Assembly: GCA_964563715.1 (NCBI GenBank)
Contig: CAZLXA010000001.1
Span: forward strand, 33,613-97,612
Direction of reading: 5' to 3'
DNA length: 64,000 bases
Origin: an uncultured Candidatus Saccharibacteria bacterium
Lineage (GTDB): Bacteria > Patescibacteriota > Minisyncoccia > Phycocordibacterales > UBA9973
Shown here: in pieces, positions 1,413-34,983 of the stretch
Layout: every line of letters starts with the position of its first letter
How positions within the stretch are numbered: position 1 is the first letter of the stretch
The notes under the pieces: generated by a model
The model's input: only the letters and a program-made list of their open reading frames with translations
What the model was told of the DNA's origin: nothing
Database searches by the model: none
Made by a program: the position numbers and the translations under genes

Positions 1413-1769
1413 TTACCGAACTTTTGCTCCAGAAGATACTTTTTGCTCTGGGATCAAAAAGACCGGTTTGCCATCCATTCCATCGATGGCCATCAGCATT
1501 CCATTACTTTCAAACTCTTTAATTTTTCTTGGTTCTAGGTTTACAATATATAAAACTTGTTTACCAACTAAAACCTGTGGGTCAGGATAATATTCTTTTA
1601 TACCGGAAACAATTTGTCTTAAAACCTTCCTCCCCTCTGCGTCAATTTCATTGAAATCAACCATACATCGCAAAAGTTTATCAGTCTCCGGCACAACTTC
1701 GACTTCCCTAATCATTCCAACCCTAATATCCATTTTTTTAAACTCTTCGTAAGATACAAATTCTTGCAT
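1413..1769 (-). CDS. tRNA-binding domain protein (CsaA / Myf-domain-like)
   Basis: 118 aa. MIREVEVVPETDKLL...VNLEPRKIKEFESNGMLMA resembles the OB-fold tRNA-binding domain found in CsaA and the MetRS C-terminus. Confidence 0.6.
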   Translation of the reverse strand: MQEFVSYEEFKKMDIRVGMIREVEVVPETDKLLRCMVDFNEIDAEGRKVLRQIVSGIKEYYPDPQVLVGKQVLYIVNLEPRKIKEFESNGMLMAIDGMDGKPVFLIPEQKVSSGAKVR

Positions 1770-1797
1770 ATTTTTAGTATATCATATGAAATTATTA

Positions 1798-2241
1798 TTA
1801 ATTATTCTTTCTATCTAAATACCTTTGCAAAATTAAAGCGGCGGCGGAGTCATCTACGGCATTACTTTTTACCCCGCCTTTTCGGCGGGTCGCCGGAAAG
1901 GCGACTTTGCGCGCATTATTTTCTTTTTTTCCATCATTTCCACGAGCAAACATAGATGTCATAAATTCTTTTTCAAAATAAATCGGTAAATCAAGTTCTC
2001 CCTCAAGATTTCTTTTGAATTCTTCTATGCTTCCCATTATTTTATTTGGCTTCCCTGACAAGTCCGTCGATTCACCTAAAACGATAGCGGAAATTTCTTC
2101 AACTCCACAAATATTGTGAATAGTATCAACAAGCTCAAGATTGTTCCCTATTATTTTATATGGAAAAGCAAATTTGCCTTCTTCATCAGAAAGAGATAAT
2201 CCAACTCTTTTAGCTCCATAATCAATTCCTAAGTATTTCAT
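1798..2241 (-). CDS. ruvX: Holliday junction resolvase-like protein RuvX/YqgF
   Basis: N-terminus MKYLGIDYGAKRVGLSLSD is the classic YqgF/RuvX signature; 147 aa. Confidence 0.85.
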   Translation of the reverse strand: MKYLGIDYGAKRVGLSLSDEEGKFAFPYKIIGNNLELVDTIHNICGVEEISAIVLGESTDLSGKPNKIMGSIEEFKRNLEGELDLPIYFEKEFMTSMFARGNDGKKENNARKVAFPATRRKGGVKSNAVDDSAAALILQRYLDRKNN

Positions 2242-2712: not shown

Positions 2713-2798
2713 GGAGGCGTCGCATAGTTGGTCTAGTGCGCCCGTCTTGAAAACGGGTACGCCGCAAGGCGTCGTGAGTTCGAATCTCACCGCCTCCG
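2713..2798 (+). tRNA. tRNA-Ser (anticodon TGA), class II with a long variable arm
   Basis: Cloverleaf: acceptor GGAGGCG/CGCCTCC, anticodon stem-loop CCCGT-CTTGAAA-ACGGG, 16-nt variable arm, T-arm GTGAG-TTCGAAT-CTCAC, discriminator G. CCA is not encoded. Plausible promoter TTGAAA-17-TAATGT upstream and a terminator hairpin at 2806-2834. Confidence 0.85.
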
Positions 2799-2978
2799 CA
2801 AAAAAAGAAAACCCAAATAGGGTTTTTCTTTTTGCGGGCGAGCACGACAACTGCTTGTCGTACATGTGAGATTCGAAGAGCTTTTCATTAAGTATTTTTG
2901 TTTAGCAAAAATACTTTGAAAAGGTGTACTGAACCTGTAAGGTTCGAAACATGTACTCATGGTCCCACCGCCTCCGCA
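2799..2978 (+). repeat. tRNA-Ser-associated downstream segment ending in a direct repeat of the tRNA 3' terminus (CACCGCCTCCGCA at 2966-2978). It also contains an antisense copy of the T-arm.
   Basis: The 13-nt tRNA 3' end is repeated about 170 nt downstream. GTGAGATTCGAA at ~2870 is the reverse complement of the T-arm. No 5' half is present, so this is not a second tRNA. Confidence 0.55.
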
Positions 2979-3087
2979 TAGTAACTAATAATTTTTAAAA
3001 AACACCTCATTTTCTGTTTTAAGAAAAAACCATTCATAGTGCATAACTTTCTTGTTTTCTTTGTCACATTTACGGTAAAATATACTT

Positions 3088-3705
3088 ATGCTTGATAAAA
3101 TTTTACTAAATTGGCAACCCTATAAAATAACCGAAAATGATCTACCCGTGCTAATTACTTATGCTAAACATATGGGTGGTTCTCATTTATCAATTGTTTT
3201 AATTGCCGATTTATTTCTTAGAGGCTCAAAAATTATATTTCTAACCGCTTACCCAATGGCTAAAGATAATTTTTTAAATCAAGTTGGAATCAATAATCCA
3301 AATATTATTTTTGTGGATTCGGTAGAGGGCTTAGAAGAAGCCGCAAATACCCAAGCTATTATAATCGAAAGTGGTAATGCTACTTTATTTTTAAATGCAA
3401 TAAAAAATCTTCCTGATCTAAATGAACGAATCATCTTTATAAAAAATATTGAAATTTTTAGTGAAGAAGTATACGACGCTTGTATAAAATCAAAAAAATT
3501 AATTATCTCGGGTGACATTGATGAATGTGATTTCAAAGATAAAATTCCAAATCAACAATTCAAAACCATCATCGCTTTCAATCAAACCACGACTAAGATT
3601 AATATAGAAATTCCTAAATTAGAAAAATGGGATAGTTTCTTGTCGAGTGAAAATCAAAATGGAATTTTAACTCTAGAAAATAAAGATCATAAATTCACAC
3701 TCTAA
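3088..3705 (+). CDS. Hypothetical protein
   Basis: 205-aa ORF with no recognisable motif. Confidence 0.4.
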   Translation: MLDKILLNWQPYKITENDLPVLITYAKHMGGSHLSIVLIADLFLRGSKIIFLTAYPMAKDNFLNQVGINNPNIIFVDSVEGLEEAANTQAIIIESGNATLFLNAIKNLPDLNERIIFIKNIEIFSEEVYDACIKSKKLIISGDIDECDFKDKIPNQQFKTIIAFNQTTTKINIEIPKLEKWDSFLSSENQNGILTLENKDHKFTL

Positions 3706-3745
3706 AATTAGCAATTTATCTATAATTAATGCTAAAATGTAAATT

Positions 3746-4021
3746 ATGGAATCAATTTTAAAGTCGGATATATTTTTCTTTATTACTTCAATGTCAGTAG
3801 TAGTACTTACACTGTTTTTGTTAGTAGCTTTATTTTATTTTATTAAAATAATGCGTAATTTTTATAAAATATCAGAAATTTTAAAAAATTATACAGAAAA
3901 AACAGAAAATGACTTAAGGGATTTAGGCCAACATGTCCGACAAAGCAAATTGTTTACATTTCTTTTTGGTAAAGAGAAAGTTAAAAAGGAAACAGAAAGA
4001 TCAACAAAGAAATCGATATAA
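3746..4021 (+). CDS. Small membrane protein, hypothetical
   Basis: 91 aa, N-terminal TM helix, charged C-terminus. Confidence 0.4.
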   Translation: MESILKSDIFFFITSMSVVVLTLFLLVALFYFIKIMRNFYKISEILKNYTEKTENDLRDLGQHVRQSKLFTFLFGKEKVKKETERSTKKSI

Positions 4022-4100
4022 GTAGTTTATAAATTATTAATTAATATAAAAGCTCTACAAATTATATTTTGAAAATAATTCGTTTAGCTTTAAAAATACA

Positions 4101-4472
4101 ATGGTTAAAAAAATAGTAGCTAAAAAAGGTTTAGATGCAAAAACAATTATGGGAATTGGTGCAGGGGTAGCTGCGCTTTCTGCTGCTGCTTATGTCTTGT
4201 TTGGCCCAGAAGGTAAAAAGAATCGTAAAATTATTCGTGGCTGGTCAGTTAAAATGAAAGGTGAAATAATTGAAAAGTTTGAAAACGCTAAAGAATTAAC
4301 CGAACCAGTTTATCACAATATTGTTGATGGTATTCAAGCCAAATATGCTAAATTAAAAAACGTTGATCCTGAAGAGCTTCAAAATGTTGTAGCAGAAATT
4401 AAAAAACACTGGAAGGCCCTTCAAAAAGAAGCTGGGGTAAAGAAATCAAAAGTTGTAAAAAAGACTAAATAA
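4101..4472 (+). CDS. YtxH-like membrane protein (DUF948-like)
   Basis: IGAGVAALSAAAYVLFGPEGKKNRKII glycine-zipper helix followed by a coiled-coil tail; terminator at 4482-4505. Confidence 0.5.
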   Translation: MVKKIVAKKGLDAKTIMGIGAGVAALSAAAYVLFGPEGKKNRKIIRGWSVKMKGEIIEKFENAKELTEPVYHNIVDGIQAKYAKLKNVDPEELQNVVAEIKKHWKALQKEAGVKKSKVVKKTK

Positions 4473-4481
4473 TATAAAAAA

Positions 4482-4505
4482 TTCCTCCACTCGGAGGAAT
4501 TTTTT
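4482..4505 (+). terminator. Rho-independent terminator
   Basis: TTCCTCC-ACTC-GGAGGAA hairpin followed by TTTTTT. Confidence 0.65.
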
Positions 4506-4521
4506 ATGCTATGATGATTGG

Positions 4522-5667
4522 ATGGAAAATCTTTACGATCAATCAATAGAATTACACAAAAAGCACGGTGGTAAATTAGAAACAAACAGCAAGGTCCCCT
4601 TGTCAAATAAGGAAGATCTTTCTTTGGCTTATACTCCTGGTGTTGCTGGAGTTTGTTTAGCAATTGCCAAAGACGAAAAATTAGCAAAAGAATACACCCT
4701 CAAGAAAAATACGATTGCTATTGTGACTGACGGCTCGGCTATCTTGGGTCTTGGCAATTTGGGCCCCCTAGCCGCTATCCCGGTCATGGAAGGTAAAGCT
4801 GCGATATTTAAAGAATTCGGTGGTGTTGATGCTTTTCCAATTTGTTTAGATACAAATGATACAGAAGAAATAATAAAAATAGTAAAACAAATTGCTCCAG
4901 TTTTTGGTGGAATCAACTTAGAAGATATTTCGGCTCCTCGTTGTTTTATAATTGAAGAACGATTAAGAAAAGAATTAGATATCCCAGTCATGCACGATGA
5001 TCAATGGGGTGCAGCAACAGTCACTCTAGCCGCCCTTATTAATGCTCTTAAAATAGTCGGCCTTGATAAAACCAAAACAAAAGTTGTTATCTCCGGTGTT
5101 GGCTCGGCTGGAGTGGCCACTGGCCGATTACTTCATGAATATGGAATTACTAATACTATTTTTTGTGATAGTCATGGCATTATAAATTTAAATAGGAGTG
5201 ATTTAACAAAAGAAAAAATTGAATTATTAAATGGTAGTCAGCAAAAAGATTTAGAGGGAAATTTAGAAATTGCTATAAATCAAGCTGATGTTTTCATCGG
5301 TTTATCAAAACCAAATGTTTTAACATCCGCTATGGTTAAAAGTATGACTTCAAAACCAATCATTTTTGCTTTAGCCAATCCTAGCCCTGAAATTAGTCCC
5401 GAACTGGCAATGAGTTCTGGGGTTTACATTATGGCTACTGGTCGTTCTGATTATCCAAACCAGATAAATAATTCTTTGGTTTTCCCTGGGGCCTTTAAAG
5501 CTATGCTTGATCATCAAATTCCACAATTCGAAAATAAAATATTTCTTACTATCGCTGAAGCTCTGGCTAATATGATAGAAAAACCAACTCCCAAGAAGAT
5601 AATCCCAAGTATGTTTGATAAGGGTGTCATGGAAACAGTTTATAAGGCTGTATCTTCACTTAAATAA
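4522..5667 (+). CDS. NAD(P)-dependent malic enzyme (short form)
   Basis: 381 aa; LSLAYTPGVA malic-enzyme signature and Rossmann motif VISGVGSAGVATGRLL. Confidence 0.85.
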   Translation: MENLYDQSIELHKKHGGKLETNSKVPLSNKEDLSLAYTPGVAGVCLAIAKDEKLAKEYTLKKNTIAIVTDGSAILGLGNLGPLAAIPVMEGKAAIFKEFGGVDAFPICLDTNDTEEIIKIVKQIAPVFGGINLEDISAPRCFIIEERLRKELDIPVMHDDQWGAATVTLAALINALKIVGLDKTKTKVVISGVGSAGVATGRLLHEYGITNTIFCDSHGIINLNRSDLTKEKIELLNGSQQKDLEGNLEIAINQADVFIGLSKPNVLTSAMVKSMTSKPIIFALANPSPEISPELAMSSGVYIMATGRSDYPNQINNSLVFPGAFKAMLDHQIPQFENKIFLTIAEALANMIEKPTPKKIIPSMFDKGVMETVYKAVSSLK

Positions 5668-5709
5668 TTTTGCTAAAATTTTGTGGCGGGGTATAATATA
5701 AATATGGAT

Positions 5710-5827
5710 CCCGTTAGAAGTCATACATGTAATCCAAGATAATGGGAGGATATCAAGAAATTAGTTGTTTTTAAAATTATTAATTAATTTATGTACGAGA
5801 ATCTAAAGATTCTCTACTTCTAACGGG
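5710..5827 (+). repeat. Palindromic start-abutting element, copy A (CCCGTTAGAAGT ... ACTTCTAACGGG|ATG)
   Basis: Left arm at 5710-5721 and right arm at 5816-5827, with the ATG of ORF 5828 immediately following. AT-rich loop of ~95 nt. Confidence 0.55.
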
Positions 5828-6304
5828 ATGGATGAAATTAAATTAAATACTATCGAATGGTCAGTGCCAGAATATTCTCATAAAGAACGTGGAAATGATT
5901 GGTTCTGGACAATTGGACTTATTACTATTGTGGCTTGTGGTTTGGCTATTTGGTTACACAATTTTGTTTTTGCTATTTTTCTTTTAATATCTGGATGTTG
6001 TTTAATCATGTTTACATTACGACACCCACAAGAAGTAACATATAAAATAGAAACAAAAGGTTTATCAATGGGCAAAGATTTATATACTTGGAAGAGTTTG
6101 AAGAGTTTTAATATTAAAAATATTGAAACGGAATCTTATGCTAAATTAATGATAGAAACTAGTAAACACTTCCTCCCAGTCTACACAATTCCTGTTCCAA
6201 AAGATTTAGAAATGGAAATTAAACAAACTCTCCTTTTGGTTCTCCCTCGCTCAGAAATAGACGAATCAAAATCCATGGTCTTCATGGAAAAACTAGGATT
6301 CTAA
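5828..6304 (+). CDS. Membrane protein, hypothetical
   Basis: 158 aa, two TM helices; start codon directly abuts palindromic element copy A. Confidence 0.5.
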   Translation: MDEIKLNTIEWSVPEYSHKERGNDWFWTIGLITIVACGLAIWLHNFVFAIFLLISGCCLIMFTLRHPQEVTYKIETKGLSMGKDLYTWKSLKSFNIKNIETESYAKLMIETSKHFLPVYTIPVPKDLEMEIKQTLLLVLPRSEIDESKSMVFMEKLGF

Positions 6305-6313
6305 AAATTATAA

Positions 6314-6507
6314 TGTGATCCCGGCAGGATATCTTCCCCTACGAGGACAGTAGAAATAAACATTCTGTGACTACAAATAATTTCTCGCCGTCGCTCGAAA
6401 TTTTTGCAGTCCGCCCCTCGTGGTTTTGGTTGTTACCAAAACAACACTGCGGTCATCACAAAGCGAAAAAGACTGAAGAAGTTCAGTCTTTTTGAAATCG
6501 CGCTTTG
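6314..6507 (-). repeat. tRNA-Arg-associated downstream segment ending in a 15-nt direct repeat of the tRNA 3' terminus (CCTGCCGGGATCACA, minus sense). It carries the conserved block CTGTCCTCGTAGGGGAAGATATCC.
   Basis: Plus-strand TGTGATCCCGGCAGG occurs at both 6314-6328 and 6506-6520. The intervening ~175 nt is hairpin-rich, including a terminator-like stem that incorporates the tRNA 3' end. Confidence 0.6.
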
Positions 6508-6579
6508 TGATCCCGGCAGGAATCGAACCTGCATCGCAACTTCCGCAAAGTTGCGTCCTATCCATTGAACGACGGGACC
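6508..6579 (-). tRNA. tRNA-Arg (anticodon parsed as GCG)
   Basis: Minus-strand cloverleaf GGTCCCG..GTTC-AATGGATA-GGAC..CAACT-TTGCGGA-AGTTG..GCAGG-TTCGATT-CCTGC-CGGGATC-A. The G34 anticodon is unusual (ACG is expected in most bacteria), so the anticodon call is tentative. Confidence 0.75.
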
Positions 6580-6688
6580 ATATGGTTAAAATCTACACTA
6601 AATAGCTCTCAATCGCAAGTAAATCGTCTTTTAACTATTTATGCTATACTAGTTTTAGTCGAGTTTAATATATTAAAATAATTGTATT

Positions 6689-6976
6689 ATGGAAGAAAAT
6701 AAAAATTGTTGCGAGAAATCATGTGAAAAAAGTGAGTGTTGTGGAATGGGTAAATGCTGTATGTGGAAGAAATGCGGCGGAATGAAATATTTAATTTGGT
6801 TAATTATCATTGTTATCGTCTTTTGTTTGGGTGCCCAATTTGGTGAATTAAAATCTGAAACTCGAGGATATCATAATTATCGCGGTGGAATGATGAATTG
6901 GGATTATAAAGTTGTTAAACCTTTAGTTAATAATGAAACACCAGCCACTCCTCCAGCTCCCGAAGTTGCCCAATAG
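6689..6976 (+). CDS. Small Cys-rich membrane protein, hypothetical
   Basis: 95 aa. N-terminal 30 residues contain 9 Cys (CCEKSCEKSECCGMGKCCMWKKCGG), then one TM helix and a Pro/Thr-rich tail. Confidence 0.5.
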   Translation: MEENKNCCEKSCEKSECCGMGKCCMWKKCGGMKYLIWLIIIVIVFCLGAQFGELKSETRGYHNYRGGMMNWDYKVVKPLVNNETPATPPAPEVAQ

Positions 6977-7021
6977 TCTTGTATAATAAAAAAAGATATC
7001 AGCCATGGCTGATATCTTTTT

Positions 7022-7324
7022 TTATTTACCTTCGGCCCAATTTTTAATTTCTTTATAACTCGCTTCACCACATATTGTTTTTCCACTTTTTTGATTTAAG
7101 AAAAATGGTACTCCCCCACACATCTCATCTCCAACATCCAAATCAGTTAAAATTTTATCATTCTCAAGATTGTGCCACACTTCAATTTTCTTAATATCAA
7201 TTCCTTCACTTATAAGTTTATCAACATGTTCCTCCATAACAATACAATGCGGACACTCTAACCCATAAAAAAATAATAAATCTTTCATAATTTTTATTAT
7301 ACTAATTAATAATAAATAAAACAA
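7022..7324 (-). CDS. Thioredoxin-fold / glutaredoxin-like protein
   Basis: CPHC redox motif (FFYGLECPHCIVMEEHV) and a second Cys pair; start likely at the internal MKDLLFFYG. Confidence 0.55.
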   Translation of the reverse strand: MFYLLLISIIKIMKDLLFFYGLECPHCIVMEEHVDKLISEGIDIKKIEVWHNLENDKILTDLDVGDEMCGGVPFFLNQKSGKTICGEASYKEIKNWAEGK

Positions 7325-7347
7325 AAACCGCCACTTGGGCGGTTTTG
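7324..7347 (-). terminator. Rho-independent terminator downstream of rpsT
   Basis: AAAACCGCC-ACTT-GGGCGGTTTT hairpin immediately after the rpsT stop. Confidence 0.6.
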
Positions 7348-7349
7348 TT

Positions 7350-7604
7350 TTATTTTGTGATTTTTGATAAACGAGCCTTTTTGCGGGACGCTGTATTTTT
7401 CTTAATGACTCCTCTCTTGGCAGCCTTATCTATAACACTGTAAGCATTTGGGAGTAATTTCTTGGCTTCAACTTTATTTTTTTCCTTAACAAATTTTTCA
7501 ATTTTCTTAACTGTTTCTTTTATATTCTTTTTATTACGATCATTCATCGCTTTTTTAACAAGCGATCCTCGTAGAGCTTTTTTAGCTGATTTTGTAATAG
7601 GCAT
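7350..7604 (-). CDS. rpsT: 30S ribosomal protein S20
   Basis: 84 aa, very basic. MPITKSAKKALR...AKRGVIKKNTASRKKARL matches S20. Confidence 0.8.
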   Translation of the reverse strand: MPITKSAKKALRGSLVKKAMNDRNKKNIKETVKKIEKFVKEKNKVEAKKLLPNAYSVIDKAAKRGVIKKNTASRKKARLSKITK

Positions 7605-7863
7605 GGCTAATTTTTGAGGAGGAAACGACTACAAAAATAGCCATCCCGTCCTATAATTTTTGTTATATTAATAATTTTAAATTCAATAAATATTTCTCCG
7701 TATGTTTTCCGAAATACGGGGCCGAATAGGCCAATTCTTATCCCTATAGTATTTCGTCCTTCGTTTAAAATAAATTATAGGACTGGGATAATTTTCAAAT
7801 CTTGCCGAGACACCAGCAAAACTGAATATAGTGATATTAACAGAAAAAACTTGAATTGTACAC

Positions 7864-7933
7864 CCCCACACCTACTTTTTTGTAGTTTTCAACGTAGTCT
7901 TAAAGGACTACAACAAAAAAATAGGTGTGGGGG
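7864..7933. repeat. Long inverted repeat with CCCCCACACCTAC / GTAGGTGTGGGGG termini
   Basis: ~24-bp arms (CCCCCACACCTACTTTTTTGTAGT / ACTACAACAAAAAAATAGGTGTGGGGG) in the 390-bp non-coding rpsT-ruvA spacer. The same terminal motif recurs at 15708-16088. Confidence 0.5.
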
Positions 7934-7993
7934 TAAACCCCTAAGATTTTTTTGGTTATCTACAAATGCTTAAATATTTAGTATACTAGAAGT

Positions 7994-8569
7994 ATGATAG
8001 CAAGAATCGAAGGAATAATAGTTCATATTGACGAAAAATTCATCATTGTTGATGTCTCGGGTGTTGGGTATAAATTATCTGTCACAGGCGAAACTCTGGC
8101 CTCATTAATACTAGGCGAACACACTTCTTTTTGGGTTCATACGGCTGTTCGAGAAAATTCTATCGATCTTTATGGTTTTAAAAATATAAATGAAATGTCT
8201 TTCTTTGAGCTCTTGCTCGATGTCTCAGGTATTGGCCCTCGCTCGGCACTATCTATTTTATCTATTGCCCCTATTGAAACATTGAAACGTGCCATCGCGA
8301 CAGGTGATATGGCTTATTTAAATAAAGTTTCTGGTATCGGTAAAAAAACGGCTGAAAAAATTATTATTGAGCTTCGTGATAAATTACAAGATTATAAAAA
8401 TGATGAAACACCTGGTTTGTTGCGTGATGAAAGTGATATTATTGAAGCTCTTAAGTCGCTTGGCTATTCCCAAAATGAAGCTCGCGAAGCTTTGAATCAA
8501 GTTCCATCGACAACGATCGGTACAAATGCGCGAATCAAAGAAGCCTTACAAGTTTTAGGTAAAAGATAG
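7994..8569 (+). CDS. ruvA: Holliday junction branch migration protein RuvA
   Basis: MIARIEGIIVHIDEKFIIVDVSGVGYKLSV N-terminal OB domain, HhH motifs (GIGPRSALSIL, VSGIGKKTAEKII) and a C-terminal domain. Confidence 0.85.
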   Translation: MIARIEGIIVHIDEKFIIVDVSGVGYKLSVTGETLASLILGEHTSFWVHTAVRENSIDLYGFKNINEMSFFELLLDVSGIGPRSALSILSIAPIETLKRAIATGDMAYLNKVSGIGKKTAEKIIIELRDKLQDYKNDETPGLLRDESDIIEALKSLGYSQNEAREALNQVPSTTIGTNARIKEALQVLGKR

Positions 8570-8616
8570 TATTTCAATTTATCCCAGATCCATAATTTGT
8601 ACTTAGAACCTAATTT

Positions 8617-9567
8617 ATGCCTGAATTACCCGAAGTTACAACTACCGTTAATGGTTTACAAAAAGTCTTACCGGGACTTATTTTTTTAGATGTCTGGACT
8701 GATTTAAATAAAAAAAATCAAAACATCAAACAATTTAAAGAAACAATTAAAAACGATATCTTTTTTAAAGAATTTAAAAAGAAAATAATTGGACAAAAAG
8801 TTATTAAAGTTGAAAGACGAGCAAAAAATATATTAATAAATATCTCAGGTGGACACACAATTTTGATTCATTTAAAAATGACTGGGCACCTTCTTTTTGG
8901 TGAATACAAAAAAGTAGTAAATAATAAAGGGAAAGACGCAAGTAAAATACTTTGGGTGCCAAAAAATGACGGACCATTAAATGACCCCTATAACAGATTT
9001 ATACATGTTGTCTTTACCCTATCAAACAACAAACATTTAGCATTTTGTGATTCTCGTAAGTTTGGCAAGGTCACTATTATTCCTACAGACAAAAAAAATG
9101 AAACTGTTCATTTAAAAAACATCGGTCCGGAACCTCTTGAAAAAACTTTTAGTCAGAAAGAATTTATTAATCGTTTGTTTTTAAAACCTAATTGGAAAAT
9201 TAAAACAATTCTGATGGATCAATCCATCATCGCTGGTATTGGTAATATTTATTCGGATGAAATGCTTTGGGCTTCAAACATACACCCTGAATCAAACCCT
9301 CATAAAATTCCAAAAACCCAATTATCAAAACTTTATTTCGAGATGAAAAAAGTTTTGACTAAAGGTATCGATTTTGGTGGTGATTCTATGTCAGACTATC
9401 GAAATACCGAAGGATTACGAGGTGATTTTCAAAATGAACATAATGTTTATCAGAAAAAAGGCCACAAGTGTGGTAAAAAGGGTTGCAGAGGTGTTATAAT
9501 AAGAAAGGTTATAAATGGTCGCAGTGCCCATTTTTGTAACACTCATCAAAAAATATTTTCGAATTGA
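8617..9567 (+). CDS. mutM: Formamidopyrimidine-DNA glycosylase (Fpg/MutM)
   Basis: MPELPEV N-terminus with catalytic Pro2-Glu3, a H2TH region, and a C-terminal zinc finger CGKKGCRG...HFCNTH. Confidence 0.85.
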   Translation: MPELPEVTTTVNGLQKVLPGLIFLDVWTDLNKKNQNIKQFKETIKNDIFFKEFKKKIIGQKVIKVERRAKNILINISGGHTILIHLKMTGHLLFGEYKKVVNNKGKDASKILWVPKNDGPLNDPYNRFIHVVFTLSNNKHLAFCDSRKFGKVTIIPTDKKNETVHLKNIGPEPLEKTFSQKEFINRLFLKPNWKIKTILMDQSIIAGIGNIYSDEMLWASNIHPESNPHKIPKTQLSKLYFEMKKVLTKGIDFGGDSMSDYRNTEGLRGDFQNEHNVYQKKGHKCGKKGCRGVIIRKVINGRSAHFCNTHQKIFSN

Positions 9568-9574
9568 TACTCGT

Positions 9575-9684
9575 CCCGTTAGAAGTCGTGATTATCGGGA
9601 AAGTAAATAATTTATTATTAAAAATAAGTACAGTGGCTCGATTTTATTAATTAATATTAATAATCACGACCTACTTCTAATGGG
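9575..9684 (+). repeat. Palindromic start-abutting element, copy B (CCCGTTAGAAGTCGTGATT ... AATCACGACCTACTTCTAATGGG|ATG)
   Basis: 19-nt arms with one G.U-compatible mismatch; the ATG of ORF 9685 directly follows GGG. Confidence 0.55.
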
Positions 9685-9897
9685 ATGGCAGAAAAACCAA
9701 AAGAAAAAAAGAAAAAACATAATGGTGGAGAAATGCATTTCGGACTTGAAGTCCTTTTATTTGTTGTGGCGATTTTTATTCTCTGGATTTTAATGGGTGG
9801 AGCAAAAAAGAAAGTTGAGGATAAACCTTTCATTACTCCCCTAACCGATCAAGTAAATCCTGGAATGAAATATGGACCAAATTCTGATAGAAATTAA
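9685..9897 (+). CDS. Small membrane protein, hypothetical
   Basis: 70 aa, Lys-rich N-terminus, one TM helix; start abuts palindromic element copy B. Confidence 0.45.
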   Translation: MAEKPKEKKKKHNGGEMHFGLEVLLFVVAIFILWILMGGAKKKVEDKPFITPLTDQVNPGMKYGPNSDRN

Positions 9898-10376
9898 TTT
9901 CTTAGTATTCTAAATAAAGCCACTCCGCACGCCACTGAAACATTAAGTGATTCTTTTTGGCCATGCATAGGTATTTGAGCAATAGTGTCGCATCTATTTA
10001 AAATACTCTGTCTCAAACCGGTGACTTCTGGGCCCATAATTATTACAGTTTTTTTGCCCTGAGTAGATACTTTACGATAATCAATTGCTTTTTTATCTTG
10101 CTCAATAGCAATAATCATATAACCTTCTTTTTTTAATTTACTAATAACTAGGGCTAAACTTTTTTTATATTCCCATTTTATGAAATTTTCAGCCCCGAGA
10201 GCGCTTTTGGCTATATCTTTTTGAATTCGGCCAAACTTATCTGTTGGCCGGGGGCTAAAACCAGTCAAATATATTTTCGAAATTCCAACAGCATCAGCCG
10301 TCCGAAACATGGCTCCAATATTTATGGCTGAGCGAATATCCGGCAAAATAAGAATGTTTTCTTCTTCATTTTTCAT
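9894..10376 (-). CDS. SpoU/TrmH-family RNA 2'-O-methyltransferase
   Basis: 160-aa SPOUT fold; IGAMFRTADAVGISKIYLTGFSPRP and C-terminal NVSVACGVALFRIL motifs. Confidence 0.7.
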   Translation of the reverse strand: MKNEEENILILPDIRSAINIGAMFRTADAVGISKIYLTGFSPRPTDKFGRIQKDIAKSALGAENFIKWEYKKSLALVISKLKKEGYMIIAIEQDKKAIDYRKVSTQGKKTVIIMGPEVTGLRQSILNRCDTIAQIPMHGQKESLNVSVACGVALFRILRN

Positions 10377-10430
10377 ACCAGCATTCTACCACCAAAAATA
10401 TAAAAAGAAAGCCATTTTATTATATAGATT

Positions 10431-11171
10431 TTATTTTTGAGTGTTTAAAATTATATTTTTTAAATCCTTGGGTGCATGGGTCAGATTTACACAACCCTTT
10501 TTAGTAATTAAGACCATATCTTCAATTCGAACTCCCCCAAAACTCTTTATATAAATTCCGGGTTCAATAGTCACCACACAACCAATTGGTAAAATATCAT
10601 CACTTTTGGGTTTTAAATTTGGCCATTCGTGAATAACAGTTCCCACTCCATACCCTAAACCATGTGGAAATTTCTTAGAGCCAAATTTTTTATTTAAAAA
10701 TACTCTGGCTGTTTTATCTAACATCCATGCCCTTTTTTCACCATCATTAATTTTACCAATGACTTTATTTTGAGCCTCCTGTACAGCTAAATAAATTTTT
10801 TGTTGTTTATTATTTATTTTACCCCAAAAATAAGTCCGTGACATATCCGAACAATAATGGTTGCTGGTGCAACCAAAGTCAAACATTATCGTATCACCTT
10901 TTTTTAATTTTGTTTGACTAGGCTCATGGTGAATATTGGCTGAGTTTTTTCCAAAAGATACAATCGGTGGAAAAGCTAAAATCGGAGCTTTGTATTTAAT
11001 GAAAGATTTCTTGATAAATTTTTCAACTTCAATTTCTCTAATTCCAGTCTTTAAAATTTTTAGTGTATCAACCAAAACCCGCTCACTAATCCTTTGTGCT
11101 TTGATTATATTTTCTAATTCTTTTTTCGTCTTCACCGCTCTCACCTCGTGAATCAATTTTGTTTCTTTCAT
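10431..11171 (-). CDS. M24-family metallopeptidase (Xaa-Pro aminopeptidase/prolidase-like)
   Basis: Pita-bread-fold motifs DFGCTSNHYCSDMSRT, HGLGYGVGTVIHEWP and GGVRIEDMVLIT. Confidence 0.75.
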   Translation of the reverse strand: MKETKLIHEVRAVKTKKELENIIKAQRISERVLVDTLKILKTGIREIEVEKFIKKSFIKYKAPILAFPPIVSFGKNSANIHHEPSQTKLKKGDTIMFDFGCTSNHYCSDMSRTYFWGKINNKQQKIYLAVQEAQNKVIGKINDGEKRAWMLDKTARVFLNKKFGSKKFPHGLGYGVGTVIHEWPNLKPKSDDILPIGCVVTIEPGIYIKSFGGVRIEDMVLITKKGCVNLTHAPKDLKNIILNTQK

Positions 11172-11174
11172 AAA

Positions 11175-11756
11175 TTATATAAATGGATTTTTATCTTCGA
11201 ATGTTAAGCGAATCACTTTGTCTTTCGATATTTTATCAGGATGAAGACCATATTTCATTTCATATATTTCCCCGGCGCCACAAAACTTAGCTTTATTAAA
11301 ATCAAAACCAAGTAATTCTGAAACTCTTATTACCTCTTCTTTATTTTTTCCTTCTATTTCTATATATGGCTCTAAATATGGCCAGGTATCAATATCAATT
11401 TCAACTCCACCCAATATCCAACGTTCTCTTAAAGTCTCTGAATAATTTGTCATTCTAGCTCCTAAACTTTCTAAGAATTCCACTCCCAAATCCATATCAG
11501 AAATATCAAATTCAACTTCTTTTTGTTCCTCTATCGATGAATCAGTTGGTATACATTTATACGCCATAGTAATTTTATCCCCATCATCTCGGACACGAGC
11601 CCATTCCCAAAAATTACGACCCAAAGACTGCAAATCAAAGTTATATCTTTTTTGCTTATACTCGGCCCTTAGAAGCTCGGCTCCTAAATTTTTTAATTTA
11701 ATCCGATACTCGTCCTTATCAATATTCAAATATGTCGCTTCGTATTCTATCGCCAT
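11175..11756 (-). CDS. CYTH-domain protein (class IV adenylate cyclase / triphosphatase-like)
   Basis: N-terminal IEYEATYLNI and C-terminal EIDIDTW..EPYIEIEG acidic triplets are typical of the CYTH tunnel. Confidence 0.55.
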   Translation of the reverse strand: MAIEYEATYLNIDKDEYRIKLKNLGAELLRAEYKQKRYNFDLQSLGRNFWEWARVRDDGDKITMAYKCIPTDSSIEEQKEVEFDISDMDLGVEFLESLGARMTNYSETLRERWILGGVEIDIDTWPYLEPYIEIEGKNKEEVIRVSELLGFDFNKAKFCGAGEIYEMKYGLHPDKISKDKVIRLTFEDKNPFI

Positions 11757-11757
11757 A

Positions 11758-12438
11758 TTATTTTATCTCTTTAATATCCTCGCTAATCATTTTAACTATT
11801 TCTGGAAACTTGGATACATTAAAGTGGCCATTTTTGCTTTTATAAATAATAATTTTAGAATTCTTTAATTTATTTCTATATTTCTCAGCATGAGAAACTG
11901 GAACAACTTCATCATCGGCTGAAAACATAAGGGTTACATCTTTACAGTTCTTTTCAATTAAAGATAAGTCCGATTTTAATTTAAAACCACCAACTAAATC
12001 CTCTTGTGGGCATGTATTATCAAAAGGAGGACAAATCATATAAACCGAAAGTAATTTTTTGGGGAATTTATTTTCTGATAAATATTTAGCTAGAAAAATA
12101 CCACCCAAAGAACCTCCAAGCAATATTGAATTCATCTTCAAATATGGAATATATTTTTCAAAAACTATTTTCCATTCTTTATATTTAGCATTTTCTTGAA
12201 GAGGAAAACGAGGTTTTATTATTTGAAATTTTTTACCCAATTCCTCATTTATATATGTATCGGCCCATTTTGGTTTTTTTAAAAATTTTATTTCTTTATT
12301 TTTCAAGTAATTTAAATAATCCTTCTGCTTCTTAAAAGTCGTTCCACCGTGAATCATTAATATTTGCGTCTTTGTTTTCATATAAGTTTTATAAGTTAAA
12401 TTTTTCCTTAATTTGTTTTGCCGCTGTAGCTGGGTCAA
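11758..12438 (-). CDS. RBBP9/YdeN-like serine hydrolase (alpha/beta fold)
   Basis: LMIHGGTTF, nucleophile elbow GGSLGG, and C-terminal HF. Confidence 0.55.
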   Translation of the reverse strand: MTQLQRQNKLRKNLTYKTYMKTKTQILMIHGGTTFKKQKDYLNYLKNKEIKFLKKPKWADTYINEELGKKFQIIKPRFPLQENAKYKEWKIVFEKYIPYLKMNSILLGGSLGGIFLAKYLSENKFPKKLLSVYMICPPFDNTCPQEDLVGGFKLKSDLSLIEKNCKDVTLMFSADDEVVPVSHAEKYRNKLKNSKIIIYKSKNGHFNVSKFPEIVKMISEDIKEIK

Positions 12439-12949
12439 TATCTGTATTATTAATTCTTAGATAATTTTTTTCTTTTATTTCTCCCTCCAAGGAGTTTGGT
12501 CTATGTTTAACTAGGGTTTCTCTTAATTTTTTATCAGCCCCAGCGCTTCCTCTTTTTGACGGTTTATGTATTAATCGATTCTCTGTTTTGTTTCTTTTTA
12601 TTCTCTCTTCAATGTCAGCTTCGAGTTCAACATAGTATATTTCTGCTCCTTTATCACGAAATATTTTAGTTAGAGACTCCGTGTATTCCCAGTCTTTCTT
12701 GTCATCAAAATACCATACAAAGGTAAAGATTAATCCTTCTAAATCACTTTCTGATACTGCTTTAAATACCTCTTCCCTAATAAGTCTTACTAGTTTTTGT
12801 GCTGTGGGTGTCCCGTAATCAAAGAAAGGATTAACTAGCTCAATCGGCATATGATTATGAAATAACTTAAGGCTTGTTATTTTTTCAAGTTCTTGACCTA
12901 CGGTCATTTTCCCAACAGCTTGTGGCCCAGTAATAAGGATTAATTTCAT
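12389..12949 (-). CDS. P-loop NTPase / small-molecule kinase-like (AAA_33-type)
   Basis: Walker A ITGPQAVGKMT at the N-terminus; 186 aa. Overlaps the downstream ORF by about 50 nt, so the start may be internal. Confidence 0.5.
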   Translation of the reverse strand: MKLILITGPQAVGKMTVGQELEKITSLKLFHNHMPIELVNPFFDYGTPTAQKLVRLIREEVFKAVSESDLEGLIFTFVWYFDDKKDWEYTESLTKIFRDKGAEIYYVELEADIEERIKRNKTENRLIHKPSKRGSAGADKKLRETLVKHRPNSLEGEIKEKNYLRINNTDIDPATAAKQIKEKFNL

Positions 12950-13032
12950 ATTTAAATTATAACATAATTTTATATAATGTTGATTTTATTACGTTAATAT
13001 GGTATTTTGATATGGTTAATGGAAGATAGTTA

Positions 13033-13106
13033 TGCGCCCGTAGCTCAGTTGGTAGAGCAGCTCCCTTTTAAGGAGATGGTCGTAGGTTCGATTCCTACCG
13101 GGCGCA
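13033..13106 (+). tRNA. tRNA-Lys (anticodon TTT)
   Basis: GCGCCCG-TA-GCTC-AGTTGGTA-GAGC-A-GCTCC-CTTTTAA-GGAGA-TGGTC-GTAGG-TTCGATT-CCTAC-CGGGCGC-A. Confidence 0.85.
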
Positions 13107-13271
13107 CACTTATAAAAACCTTAAGAAATTAAGGTTTTTATAAGTGTGCGCCCAAGCAAGCAAACTGCTTTGCTTGCGTGTAGGAATCGAAAGGCTTTTG
13201 TGTCTTTTTAAAAATTCATTTTAAAAAAGTACAAAAGGCATACTGTCCTCGTAGAGGAAGATATCCTACCG
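13107..13271 (+). repeat. tRNA-Lys-associated downstream segment. Contains a terminator hairpin that incorporates the tRNA 3' end, antisense copies of the tRNA T-arm and acceptor, and the conserved block CTGTCCTCGTAGAGGAAGATATCCTACCG (13243-13271).
   Basis: AAGTGTGCGCCC and GTAGGAATCGAA are reverse complements of the tRNA 3' end and T-arm. The final CCTACCG repeats the tRNA T-stem/acceptor junction. The block is about 90% identical to the one after tRNA-Arg. Confidence 0.55.
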
Positions 13272-13298
13272 ATAAGCGTACTCGCGGCCCTACCAACC

Positions 13299-13394
13299 TG
13301 ATAGAAAGTCTTGTAACACAAGACTTTTTTCTGTGCAAAATGGGTTAACCTAGAGGGGAATCGAACTTTTGTGTATTTCTGATATAATTAATTT
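13299..13394 (+). repeat. Direct repeat 1 (terminator hairpin plus leaderless promoter module) flanking the GNAT-NUDIX cassette
   Basis: GATAGAAAGTCTTGTAACACAAGACTTTTTTCTGTGCAAAATGG ... TATTTCTGATATAATT. A second copy lies at 14503-14597 with ~4 mismatches in the first 45 nt. Confidence 0.65.
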
Positions 13395-14394: not shown

Positions 14395-14502
14395 TTAACT
14401 TTCCCTCTGTAAAGCTTTAATAAAAATTAGCTGATTATATAAACCCTTCATATAACTCTCATTAGATAAAATATTTATAATAATCTCCTGTTCTGGGGAC
14501 CC

Positions 14503-14597
14503 GATAAAAAGTCTTGTAACACAAGACTTTTTTCTGTGGAAAAGTGGCCAACCAAGACAAAAATAGAAACTTATTATATTTCTGTTATAATTTACCT
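14503..14597 (+). repeat. Direct repeat 2 (terminator hairpin plus leaderless promoter module) upstream of rsgA
   Basis: GATAAAAAGTCTTGTAACACAAGACTTTTTTCTGTGGAAAAGTGG ... TATTTCTGTTATAATT; TATAAT at 14586-14591 lies 6 nt before ATG 14598. Confidence 0.65.
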
Positions 14598-33850: not shown

Positions 33851-33887
33851 ATTATTAATTCGTAATTATTAATTCGTAATTATTTTT
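33851..33887. repeat. AATTCGTAATT-type repeat at the dnaN stop
   Basis: ATTATTAATTCGTAATTATTAATTCGTAATTATTTTT. Confidence 0.6.
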
Positions 33888-34983
33888 ACCTATTCATTGG
33901 CATGACCAAATACATAAAAGATGAGTCTCCAATTCCTTTTATAATCATTGGCCGGTTGTTGCCATTTAACTCAATACTTAAACTATCACCAGAAATAGAC
34001 TGAAAACAATCTAAAATATATTTATAATTAAAATTTGCAGAAACTGGTTCTCCAGATAAAGCGCCCGAAATAAGGGTAGTATTCTCTCCAATATCTGTAT
34101 TTTTTGATTCTATTTCGAATATTTTTTCATTAGGTTTAACAGTCAAAACCACTTGATTAAACTTATCAGAAAAAATATTTGAAATTTTCAGAGATGAAAT
34201 AAAATCTTGTTTTAAAACAACAGATTTTGTTGTTGGGTTTTTAGGAATAATTTGTTTGTAGTCAGGGAAACTCCCGTCTACAACCCTTGAAGTTAAATAA
34301 ATATTTGAAGCAGTAAATGATATTTGGTTTTTTTGAAGAGTAATATTAACGTCGTCATCAAAACCATCAAACACTTTAATTATCTCAACAACATTTTTAA
34401 AGGGAATTAATATTCCGCCAAAAGATAATTTTTGTTTTATTTTTATTTTTTTCTCAGCTAATCTGAAAGAGTCGGTTGAAACAAAAACCAACATATCGTC
34501 TTCTGGGTAAATATATACGCTTCCGATTTCAGGTTTTATTTCCGAAACAGAAGCACTATAATAAACCGATTTAACCCCTTCAATAAATTTTTTACTAGAA
34601 ATAAGTAATGTCTCCCCTTCAACAATTGGGATAGTTGGAAAATCTTCATGAGAAATACTTTTTAATAAAATAGTACTTGTATTTGTTTTAACCAATAAAT
34701 TACCATTAATCAACTCAAATTTAACCAATAAGTCTCCTTGTAAAACAGAAAACAAAGAGGATAAAATATCACCTCTCACGGCCACCACCCCTTCTTTCTC
34801 GATTTTTGCTGGTATTTCTATTTCAATACCAATATTTAAATTAGTGGCCCTTAGTTTCAATGATTTACCTGTTGCTACCCACAAAACCGAACCTAAAACA
34901 GGTAATGTTAAATTCTTTCCAGTTATCCTTTCGACTGATTGGAGTGCTTTTTTTATTTTATCGATTGAACATTCTATTTTCAT
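33886..34983 (-). CDS. dnaN: DNA polymerase III beta sliding clamp
   Basis: 365 aa in three-domain clamp architecture, positioned immediately downstream of dnaA. Confidence 0.85.
   Translation of the reverse strand: MKIECSIDKIKKALQSVERITGKNLTLPVLGSVLWVATGKSLKLRATNLNIGIEIEIPAKIEKEGVVAVRGDILSSLFSVLQGDLLVKFELINGNLLVKTNTSTILLKSISHEDFPTIPIVEGETLLISSKKFIEGVKSVYYSASVSEIKPEIGSVYIYPEDDMLVFVSTDSFRLAEKKIKIKQKLSFGGILIPFKNVVEIIKVFDGFDDDVNITLQKNQISFTASNIYLTSRVVDGSFPDYKQIIPKNPTTKSVVLKQDFISSLKISNIFSDKFNQVVLTVKPNEKIFEIESKNTDIGENTTLISGALSGEPVSANFNYKYILDCFQSISGDSLSIELNGNNRPMIIKGIGDSSFMYLVMPMNR

Follow-up and report, generated by a model that had tools for sequence, protein, structure and literature searches.

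What are the repeated tRNA tails in a 64,000-nucleotide (nt) stretch of an uncultured Candidatus Saccharibacteria contig, where each of the transfer RNA (tRNA) genes is followed at a short distance by a second copy of its own 3′ end? A preliminary description of this stretch (contig CAZLXA010000001.1; hereafter the window) saw in these repeats either miniature att-like insertions lacking an integrase or a conserved structure of the tRNA trailers. We found that each repeated tail belongs to a folded module of ~130 to 200 nt with no open reading frame (ORF) inside, and that related modules stand behind many tRNA and transfer-messenger RNA (tmRNA) genes of other Patescibacteria. We tentatively favor a reading in which the modules are non-autonomous, gene-less elements specific for tRNA and tmRNA 3′ ends, which rebuild the tail of the gene that they enter and fold into a mimic of their target. 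This reading is built on the anatomy of the modules, their covariation with the target, their fold, their insertion signatures and their exchange between loci, all of which are observed.

Exactly three tRNA genes were found in the window (G+C, ~33%), with ARAGORN and Rfam agreeing, and none of them encodes CCA. Behind each gene come a terminator, the reverse complement of its final ~20 nt, a set of conserved hairpins and a direct copy of its tail. Read in the direction of the tRNA, the order of parts is terminator, anti-acceptor, P2, anti-T, P3, P4, linker and sense copy. The terminator is a hairpin with an A-run in front and a T-run behind. In the anti-acceptor, the acceptor 3′ strand with the discriminator and the opening bases of the trailer recurs as its reverse complement; in the anti-T, the T-stem 3′ strand and T loop recur in the same way (e.g., GTAGGAATCGAA for Lys). 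This antisense tail copy is usually split at the acceptor/T-stem junction by the 25-nt P2. P3 is a variable hairpin, and P4 consists of TACTG, a 5-base-pair (bp) stem, a GTA loop and the closing stem strand. The sense copy repeats the tRNA directly from its last T-loop bases on, starting within the T loop with GAT and continuing through a bulge of 1 to 3 nt into the T-stem 3′ strand. A further helix, P1, pairs a T-stem 5′-like strand with the T-stem 3′ strand. The scaffold is interchangeable, being either P3 plus P4 (types A and B) or a type-C interior. The type-A linker, AGAT(A)TCC, lies within a 24-nt block described below, and the type-B linker runs from CGATAAG through a small P5 hairpin (TACT loop) to GGTCC. 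We refer to tail, terminator and antisense arm as the 5′ half of a module and to P3 plus P4 as the 3′ half. Coordinates are positions within the window, L-numbers denote loci of relatives, and the basis of each assignment is given in brackets.

At tRNA-Ser, all on the plus strand:
2713–2799 (to 2800 with the last tail base), plus strand: tRNA-Ser(tga), intact (ARAGORN; Rfam tRNA, 58.3 bits)
2788–2800, plus strand: last 13 nt of the tRNA, upstream copy of the direct repeat CACCGCCTCCGCA (sequence)
2801–2833, plus strand: terminator hairpin with A-run, GC stem and T-run (sequence, fold)
2833–2840, plus strand: anti-acceptor TGCGGGCG, imperfect (sequence)
2841–2863, plus strand: P2 hairpin with a CTGC loop (fold; P2 covariation in the family)
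2866–2877, plus strand: anti-T GTGAGATTCGAA, the reverse complement of T loop and T-stem 3′ strand (sequence)
2878–2926, plus strand: P3 hairpin of the type-B scaffold (sequence)
2927–2944, plus strand: P4, TACTG-AACCT-GTA-AGGTT (stem co-varies between loci)
2945–2965, plus strand: CGAAACA, P5 with a TACT loop, and GGTCC (P5 stem co-varies between loci)
2966–2978, plus strand: downstream direct copy of 13 nt, complete to the discriminator (sequence)

At tRNA-Arg, all on the minus strand:
6507–6579 (tail to 6506), minus strand: tRNA-Arg(gcg), intact (ARAGORN, Rfam)
6353–6505, minus strand: atypical 5′ part of the module, including a remnant of the P3 3′ strand (sequence, fold)
6461–6505, minus strand: terminator within the atypical 5′ part
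6447–6460, minus strand: degenerate contiguous anti-copy TGTGATGACCGCAG (sequence)
6421–6446, minus strand: hairpin within the atypical 5′ part
6363–6420, minus strand: type-C-like interior
6327–6352, minus strand: type-A P4 block TACTGTCCTCGTAGGGGAAGATATCC, whose stem has a U.G pair that exists on the tRNA-sense strand only
6314–6326, minus strand: downstream direct copy TGCCGGGATCACA, full length (sequence)

At tRNA-Lys, all on the plus strand:
13034–13107 (tail to 13108), plus strand: tRNA-Lys(ttt), intact (ARAGORN, Rfam)
13109–13191, plus strand: 5′ half of the module (sequence, fold)
13109–13144, plus strand: palindromic terminator (sequence)
13145–13153, plus strand: anti-acceptor TGTGCGCCC (sequence)
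13154–13179, plus strand: P2 (fold)
13180–13191, plus strand: anti-T GTAGGAATCGAA (sequence)
13192–13240, plus strand: P3, in the 3′ half of the module
13241–13266, plus strand: type-A P4 block, in the 3′ half of the module
13265–13271, plus strand: direct tail copy eroded to CCTACCG (sequence)
13272–13294, plus strand: 3′ remnant of an older type-B module, ATAAGCGTACTCGCGGCC and a second CCTACC (sequence)
13306–13335, plus strand: terminator after the type-B leftover, whose 30 nt recur at 14509–14538 (sequence)

The direct repeats are 13 nt long for Ser, 13 nt for Arg (6506–6518 and 6314–6326; a 15-mer when the CC in front is counted) and 7 nt for Lys. A 24-nt block, CTGTCCTCGTAGRGGAAGATATCC, is shared by the Arg module (6327–6350, minus strand) and the Lys module (13243–13266, plus strand), and none of 100 dinucleotide shuffles contained a match to it at ≤3 mismatches. 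The Ser module is of type B and is without this block but has the homologous hairpin, and the P4 stems of Ser and Lys (TACTG-TCCTC-GTA-GAGGA) co-vary. Within the window, the P4 motif occurs at the three tRNAs only. The Lys module is of type A and is followed by the end of the older type-B copy. The Arg module is of type A at its 3′ end and combines this end with a degenerate 5′ part and a type-C interior that is also present in L011, L031 and L040. The repeats at the three tRNA 3′ ends, the ~30-nt block common to Arg and Lys and the antisense copies of T arm and acceptor had all been reported in the preliminary description. We located the repeats where it had placed them, identified the block as the small hairpin P4 plus its junction, and found antisense copies in all three trailers, degenerate in Arg and with an imperfect anti-acceptor in Ser.

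We found the module family to extend well beyond the window, across Patescibacteria genomes of the Paceibacteria type. The exact 24-mer was present in 113 copies in 108 sources, all Patescibacteria where named, and its carriers included 23 contigs of GTDB representative genomes (labeled Patescibacteria or “uncultured bacterium”) and 84 metagenome contigs. The nearest matches to the sequence features of the window came from Patescibacteria metagenome-assembled genomes (MAGs) labeled Paceibacteria or Nomurabacteria, with some Saccharibacteria. For 85 of the 113 blocks, a tRNA or tmRNA gene lay on the same strand 108 to 371 nt upstream, mostly at 108 to 160 nt, with some 20 tRNA species represented. 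By upstream gene, these blocks followed Arg-gcg (27), Lys-ttt (10), Trp (9), Gly-tcc (7), Arg-tct (4), Pro (4), Met (3), Ala (3), Gln (2), Asn (2), Ile, Glu, Lys-ctt and Arg-tcg (1 each), and tmRNA (11). Most other blocks were explained: 12 had less than 350 nt of contig upstream, some lay inside arrays, the L077 block stood behind a tRNA with a group I intron that ARAGORN missed, and the L081 block stood behind a tRNA half displaced by an island. The L077 intron (1626–1917, plus strand; Rfam RF00028, 66 bits) is followed by the 3′ exon and then by a normal type-A module. Group I introns in anticodon loops of Patescibacteria tRNAs, with which the L077 intron agrees, have been described and are unrelated to the modules (Nakagawa 2026, PMC13011429). 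A group I intron was rejected as the identity of the modules, on which the Intron_gpI covariance model found no match; the window tRNAs are uninterrupted.

These counts bear on the possibility, allowed for in the preliminary description, that the matches are chance likenesses of terminator hairpins, in which case other tRNAs would be without duplications and the block would occur nowhere else. Neither is the case: the module stands at many further tRNAs, and the block is spread widely. Taken singly, the 7-nt Lys repeat is not significant (~1% chance within 200 nt), and we accept it because the family pattern is a direct copy eroded from the 3′ side. Chance is excluded by the 0 of 100 shuffles, the 13- and 15-nt repeats within 200 nt, the 113 blocks standing nearly always behind tRNA or tmRNA genes and the covariation statistics given below, and we regard its probability as practically nil.

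To describe the regularity of the modules, we used 74 tRNA-proximal modules from other genomes. The 8-nt anti-acceptor matched the local gene without mismatch in 43 of the 74 modules and with one mismatch in 20 (63 of 74 with no more than one), and the 12-nt anti-T did so without mismatch in 39 and with one in 22 (61 of 74). The P2 insert between the two antisense segments was exactly 25 nt long in 59 of 67 modules. Across the family, these segments change together with their own tRNA. Where the acceptor stem has a G.U pair (L014, L019), the antisense arm tracks the 3′ strand of the tRNA and not the 5′ strand. It also tracks T-loop variants (GACT in Gly, GATC in Asn and GAGT in Ala), and it contains TGG only where the gene encodes CCA (L021). 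These features indicate that the antisense arm mirrors DNA or a precursor, not the mature tRNA. We also observed that module-bearing genes are nearly all discriminator-CAA, which is mirrored as TTG before the antisense arm. Among 48 distinct module upstream sequences, G occupies position −1 in 44 and T occupies position −2 in 41, and this mirroring of CAA indicates that the first trailer bases are conserved too.

The junctions of the modules and their state in relatives carry the case for insertion. The targets point the same way, tRNA and tmRNA genes being the classic class of attachment site. A module begins in the T loop and supplies a replacement T-stem 3′ strand, acceptor 3′ strand and discriminator, leaving the gene intact, and it ends directly before the displaced original tail. 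Empty sites in relatives, which the preliminary description had proposed to look for, were found for two genes. tRNA-Ser(tga), occupied in the window, is empty in L023, where only a plain terminator follows it and the neighboring proteins are 67 to 72% identical; Gly-tcc is empty in L003 and occupied in L012. The displaced sense copy has its full length of 13 nt in 24 modules, in some of which (L014) its own terminator is still attached. The remaining sense copies are cut from the 3′ side only, to 5 to 12 nt and never beyond the T-stem strand. This is the state that we would expect if an original tail, once displaced, eroded until only the part required for P1 was left.

Tandem arrays and shared scaffolds add to these signatures. 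Each of the arrays in L007, L016, L019, L023, L049 and L055 contains an intact tRNA-proximal module. The distal copies are intact in L055, and elsewhere their palindromic 5′ part is lost or decayed. Long palindromes are prone to deletion, and only the proximal palindrome would be protected, because the functional tRNA tail lies in it. The four modules of the L048 array represent all four combinations of two 5′ variants and two 3′ variants. An identical P3 (39 of 39 nt) stands behind Arg-tct in L005 and behind Arg-gcg in L016, which belong to different species, and P3 types are shared among tmRNA, Arg, Lys and Trp genes in different MAGs. The block itself is identical (24 of 24 nt) between genomes whose orthologous proteins share only 35 to 80% identity. 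Such sharing points to horizontal or ectopic exchange.

Part of this picture could arise as an inert by-product of replication. A fold-back template switch at the terminator hairpin, followed by a switch back at the palindromic T arm, would leave a sense/antisense/sense triplication, with quasi-palindrome correction keeping the copies perfect and gene conversion spreading the shared hairpins. Two switches, one at each of two natural palindromes, would give exactly the observed skeleton of tail, terminator, inverted tail, and T stem plus tail. The perfection of the palindrome through the spacer also fits, as does the contiguous inverted copy without P2 in type-C modules. Template switching nevertheless leaves unexplained the homologous P2, P3 and P4 at fixed positions behind some 20 tRNA species, as well as the compensatory evolution, the strand bias and the identical scaffolds in distant genomes, and we consider it very improbable.

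We analyzed the fold by anchoring the parts with regular expressions and applying RNAalifold to 38 type-A modules. RNAalifold recovered P2, P1, P3 and P4, with changes on both sides in 22 of 29 pairs. In the observed alignment, 94.4% of cells were paired, compared with 69.8% in shuffled alignments (0 of 500 shuffles reached the observed value) and 42 to 51% when the partners were slid. The covariation score was 0.617, compared with 0.165 in shuffles (again reached by 0 of 500) and 0.06 to 0.14 with slid partners. P4 is invariant within type A and co-varies between types. Among 69 distinct P3 hairpins, the sense strand was the more stable in 65 and the antisense strand in 3, and the sense strand had 44 G.U pairs against 13 for the antisense strand. 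This bias in stability and G.U pairs indicates that the fold is used on the tRNA-sense strand, but it does not separate RNA from single-stranded DNA, because DNA tolerates G.T as well. Together, tail, terminator and antisense parts form a near-perfect hairpin with ~45-bp arms interrupted by P2 (fold of the Lys region, −134 kcal/mol; z-score, −12). Alternatively, the antisense arm can pair with the downstream sense copy into a T-stem/acceptor-like helix capped by P3 and P4. In the sense-strand fold, a long helix capped by the scaffold imitates the double-stranded acceptor/T-stem portion of the target. We saw no signal of a replication-strand bias, the window modules lying on both strands of apparently one replichore. 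The window contains adjacent dnaN and dnaA genes (33886–36555, minus strand), which place a replication origin probably near 36.6 to 37 kb; the cumulative GC skew is without a clear turning point there.

Under the insertion reading that we favor, a trans-acting site-specific recombination activity would insert the module by exchange within the segment of identity from the T loop to the 3′ end. The folded target mimic, as single-stranded DNA or RNA, may be the recognition substrate, by analogy with integron attC and CTX phage attP. New copies would land beside the gene and push older copies downstream, and the older copies would lose their unstable palindromic part by deletion and then decay. 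The tail copies would at the same time provide extra attachment sites for promoter-bearing gene cassettes.

A number of results weigh against this proposal, first among them the search for an enzyme. A Pfam scan of the 20 window ORFs found no integrase, transposase or reverse transcriptase; the proteins with a match are ordinary cellular enzymes of chromosomal genes, including dnaA, dnaN, ruvB, fpg, rsgA, ksgA and a class-I aminoacyl-tRNA synthetase, and several have no match. An IS110 gene had no tblastn match in the window, and a tyrosine recombinase was found neither near the window modules (Pfam) nor in the cassette arrays of L048 and L106. A full-length, integrase-bearing element ending in the block, for which the preliminary description had proposed a search, was not found. 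Tyrosine integrases do occur in L081 (100–9770), a classical tandem island whose three integrase paralogues are flanked by an intact tRNA-Lys on one side and a displaced 45-nt 3′ half of tRNA-Lys on the other. The displaced half starts in the anticodon loop and keeps the terminator and module, and the half supplied by the island has neither. These integrases were rejected as the mobilizing enzyme, since the L081 crossover lies in the anticodon loop (45-nt repeat) and the module was displaced as old flank.

The second enzyme candidate was a member of the IS110 family of insertion sequences (IS). In L106 (5374–6429, minus strand), a gene for a 351-amino-acid (aa) DEDD_Tnp_IS110/Transposase_20 protein lies between P3 and P4 of a tRNA-Lys-type module. 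This protein has 1554 homologues at E ≤ 1e-10, and those with a named source are from Patescibacteria. A comparison of element contexts for five homologues (L108–L118) showed that the element starts with ACGTTGTGAACCCC directly after ...ACTG, ends with GGGGTTCATAGT, and has 8- to 9-bp subterminal inverted repeats, its left end being short and its right end long. A short left and a long right end with subterminal inverted repeats are features of the IS1111 group (Durrant 2024, PMC11208160). The element was found within modules at the TACTG/P4 junction behind Lys (L106), Ser-gct (L113) and Gln (L109) and also in L108, and it occurs at unrelated sites too (L110, L115–L118). One right-end segment varies in step with the left flank (GTAGAACTG with GAGAACTG in L115; GTTGTACCG with CTGTACCG in L109) and has the guide-like pattern NNGT(T/A)G(T/A)AC(C/T)G-CTGAGACAC. 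Judged by this covariation, the segment may serve as a left target guide of the bridge-RNA type. We rejected the module as the ends or the bridge RNA of this element, since the IS has its own constant ends, subterminal repeats and guide-like segment and uses non-module sites. Its own ends and non-module sites indicate that the IS targets modules and does not own them.

The presence of this element raises the question of whether the module is itself a guide RNA, made for a recombinase or nuclease encoded elsewhere in the manner of the IS110 bridge RNA or the IS200/IS605 omega RNA. The antisense segments would then be the guides, and P3 and P4 would be a protein-binding scaffold. The layout of guide, stem-loop and guide would suit this role, as would the constant scaffold with variable, target-matching segments, the RNA-like strand bias, the use of one scaffold with many targets and the abundance of IS110-family recombinases in the same lineages (the 1554 homologues above). 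Both antisense segments pair, however, with the same (sense) strand of one contiguous stretch of 20 to 22 nt, whereas in bridge RNAs the left and right guides bind opposite strands and the donor is recognized by a second loop (Durrant 2024, PMC11208160). In addition, the only IS110-family element that we found has its own subterminal repeats and guide-like segment and occurs away from modules, and no recombinase gene lies beside the window modules. We therefore judge a guide RNA to be decidedly unlikely.

Further points against insertion concern the module itself. An excised or circular form, or an exact pair of empty and filled sites in near-identical strains, was not obtained for the module, and such pairs were found only for cargo cassettes. 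How a scaffold would gain the matching sense and antisense arms of a new tRNA is left unexplained by insertion. A conserved promoter before the antisense arm was not found: the 20 nt upstream consist of a T-run, an A/T spacer and TTG, with no consistent −10/−35 pair. They follow this pattern because the symmetry of the palindrome dictates it. Any module RNA would need to arise by terminator read-through. Finally, compensatory change at orthologous loci (e.g., L014, L018, L069 and L082) implies continuing selection on the fold, and such selection is at least as compatible with a host or RNA function as with a one-off insertion. The strong covariation and the sense-strand-specific stability of the fold point in the same direction.

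These last observations lead to the alternative that the modules are structured trailer RNAs useful to the host, produced by terminator read-through or released by RNase Z and mimicking the acceptor/T arm. Such a mimic would act on the cognate precursor, on RNase P, RNase Z or the CCA-adding enzyme, or as a fail-safe against read-through, and the duplications and arrays would be by-products of palindrome-driven template switching and unequal crossing-over. To place this alternative against the distribution of modules, we draw on an occupancy census of 130 tRNA and tmRNA genes with enough downstream sequence, in loci picked by block presence. The module was kept at 26 of 26 Arg(gcg) genes and 11 of 11 tmRNA genes in these block-selected loci, across family-level divergence, and it was retained at the same tRNA between species whose flanking proteins share 35 to 80% identity. 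A host role would also account for P1 never being lost while the dispensable acceptor copy erodes, for the placement of P2 exactly where the D and anticodon arms branch from the real tRNA and for the L081 module acting as the native flank of tRNA-Lys.

Other features of the same data do not fit a host RNA. By strict criteria, the census counted 88 genes with a type-A module, 12 with another module and 30 with none, indicating that the module is common but not universal. Beyond this sporadic occurrence and the orthologous empty sites, the module lies behind a strong terminator and has no recognizable promoter of its own, its complementarity extends past the mature end into the untranscribed or trimmed trailer and terminator, its scaffolds are swapped among unrelated tRNAs and species, and the downstream genes are unrelated to the amino acid of the tRNA. 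On balance, we consider a host-useful trailer RNA, the main rival of insertion, possible but rather unlikely. Insertion and a trailer RNA can hold together, since a selected RNA may be carried by a selfish element. Of the two explanations put forward at the outset, the miniature att-like insertion has in its favor the intact gene, the displaced tail copy, the empty orthologous sites and the tandem arrays, while a link to a recombinase was not found. The conserved trailer structure is borne out by compensatory helices, sense-strand stability and retention at the same tRNA across species but is countered by the empty sites and sporadic occurrence.

Two other RNA classes were considered and rejected. 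A T-box-like regulator does not fit because the downstream genes (GNAT, NUDIX and unknown) are unrelated to the amino acid and the Arg module faces a convergent gene. As for a small ribozyme such as the hammerhead, inspection showed junction nucleotides that do not match the hammerhead core, and Rfam was negative.

Returning to the insertion reading, we observed gene cassettes that occupy the same tRNA tails, and these provide the exact pairs mentioned above. L049 and L080 are 92 to 97% identical in nucleotide sequence, and L080 has two extra units, each a promoter plus one gene. Both units sit exactly after ...GGGTCCACA, one at the real tRNA-Ala end and the other at the module sense copy, and both end in the same ~55-nt motif, CTCAAAAACCCAACTTTCTARCTGG...ATGTCCACA, giving a 7-nt direct repeat. 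No recombinase was found in either L080 cassette. The ~55-nt end motif of these tRNA-Ala cassettes also precedes a module in L031. In the window, a variable cassette lies behind the Lys module. Up to 13402 and again from 14557, the window shares 94% identity with L002, and between these points L002 has a 573-aa protein and a Fic protein in place of GNAT and NUDIX. The features in question are as follows.

L080, 1038–1700 and 1975–2860: cassettes, to be compared with L049, 2331–2560
13403–14556, plus strand: variable cassette (GNAT gene, NUDIX gene) between the tRNA-Lys module and rsgA
14405–14500, plus strand: Lys-type cassette-end motif (~100 nt) plus a degenerate tRNA-Lys tail (conserved motif)
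13306–13335 and 14509–14538, plus strand: repeated 30-nt terminator bounding the window cassette (sequence)

The Lys-type end motif was also found after other cassette genes in L001, L002, L015, L030, L058 and L106. It contains a conserved antisense frame of 18 codons (window ~14402–14458, minus strand; five copies in L106) that reads MKGLYNQLIFIKALQRES and a stop in the window and MKGLYNQLMFIKALQKEN and a stop in L106, with many synonymous differences between copies. A −35/−10-like pair upstream of this frame overlaps the degenerate tRNA-Lys tail. Downstream of tRNA-Asn in L048 (450–3360, minus strand), four modules alternate with three co-oriented genes, which encode a Pol-beta-type nucleotidyltransferase and two unknown products. 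Each of these genes has a degenerate T-arm-like promoter region before it and a degenerate tRNA-Asn tail after it. Similar arrays stand behind tRNA-Trp in L040 (with a deformylase fusion) and behind tRNA-Lys in L001 and L106. The L049/L080 pair and such arrays indicate that recombinase-less site-specific insertion at tRNA tails is ongoing in these lineages. Module tail copies serve as extra docking sites for cassettes.

These observations suggest a bolder proposal, which we hold to be doubtful. The modules would be the recombination sites of an unrecognized cassette system on tRNA and tmRNA 3′ ends, in which each module would be a portable mimic that matches its own target and folds as RNA or single-stranded DNA, an enzyme acting in trans would read the fold, rewriting of the arms would retarget the module to any T-arm gene, and cassettes would dock at the tail copies. 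Such a system would be an integron analogue in ultra-small genomes.

The module family is undescribed in the Rfam, phage, plasmid and IMG/VR records and the literature that we searched. At the gathering threshold, Rfam 15 recognized only the three tRNAs in the window, and E-value scans of the three trailers returned chance-level matches. In a relative, a LOOT RNA (Rfam RF03000, 82 bits) was detected at L031 (339–459, minus strand), on a contig that also carries a module. Exact scans of IMG/VR with the type-A block, the type-B block and a generic P4–P5 pattern found no match, nor did blastn against phage and plasmid records, and literature searches turned up no published description of the modules. 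The family is known in kind, both as insertion into tRNA tails with att-like repeats and as a structured repeat that serves as an IS110 landing pad. To our knowledge, a built-in reverse-complement copy of the target and a single scaffold for some 20 targets have no close precedent.

Spare DNA is scarce in the tiny genomes of Patescibacteria, yet a conserved, folded appendage of 130 to 200 nt stands behind many of their tRNA and tmRNA genes. If mobile, the module would be a rare insertion with a built-in double-stranded mimic of its own target, and the reuse of its scaffold on some 20 targets would imply a retargeting mechanism that is possibly exploitable. Mobility would account for the variable genes beside tRNAs, as cassettes docking at duplicated tails, and also for the niche held by the large IS110-family lineage whose elements home into the module. 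If the module is instead a functional trailer RNA, it would point to an unknown tRNA-handling step in a major bacterial radiation. Under either reading, the tRNA-flanking regions of these genomes merit annotation of modules.

Among the known systems close to the modules are the integrase-driven islands and prophages in tRNA and tmRNA genes that Williams reportedly described in 2002, together with gene-poor, cis-mobilizable derivatives of such elements. As with such islands, the targets are tRNA and tmRNA 3′ halves, the gene is rebuilt, a direct repeat is displaced, copies accrete in tandem, and empty and occupied alleles are found in relatives. Unlike them, the modules have only 130 to 200 nt, no integrase, an antisense copy of the target, a co-varying fold and one scaffold for ~20 tRNA species. 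The classical islands seen here (L081), unlike the modules, use the anticodon loop and carry no module. The modules resemble the bridge (seek) RNAs of IS110/IS1111 elements in their size (~150 to 200 nt for these RNAs), in the combination of a constant scaffold with short target-complementary segments and in the order of guide, stem-loop and guide. They differ from these RNAs in that no DEDD recombinase is adjacent, both segments read the same strand, and no donor-binding loop was identified.

The likeness to integron attC sites (including the ~120-nt Vibrio repeats) and to CTX attP is that of an imperfect palindrome of 60 to 200 nt with bulges and a strand-specific fold, in which structure is conserved over sequence. 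Like attC arrays, module arrays grow at the end nearest the primary site, hold gene cassettes between repeats (L048, L106 and L080) and are the target of an IS1111-type IS. Unlike in integrons, no integron-type integrase or attI/Pc platform was found near the modules, and the R/L box consensus GTTRRRY was not seen in the modules by eye. The primary site, in contrast to attC, is a tRNA tail for which each module is tailored, and the cassettes have their own promoters and right-end motifs specific to the tRNA type. With repetitive extragenic palindromic (REP) sequences and bacterial interspersed mosaic elements (BIME), the modules share the character of geneless, structured intergenic repeats at the ends of transcription units that act as landing pads for IS110-family elements. 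Unlike REP and BIME, the modules are much larger, consist of multiple helices, occur only behind tRNA and tmRNA genes and hold sense and antisense copies of the gene tail. REP elements are landing pads of the IS110-family element IS621 (Durrant 2024, PMC11208160). The IS1111-like IS110 element of these lineages homes into the module in the way that REP elements are entered by IS621 and attC sites by IS1111-attC elements.

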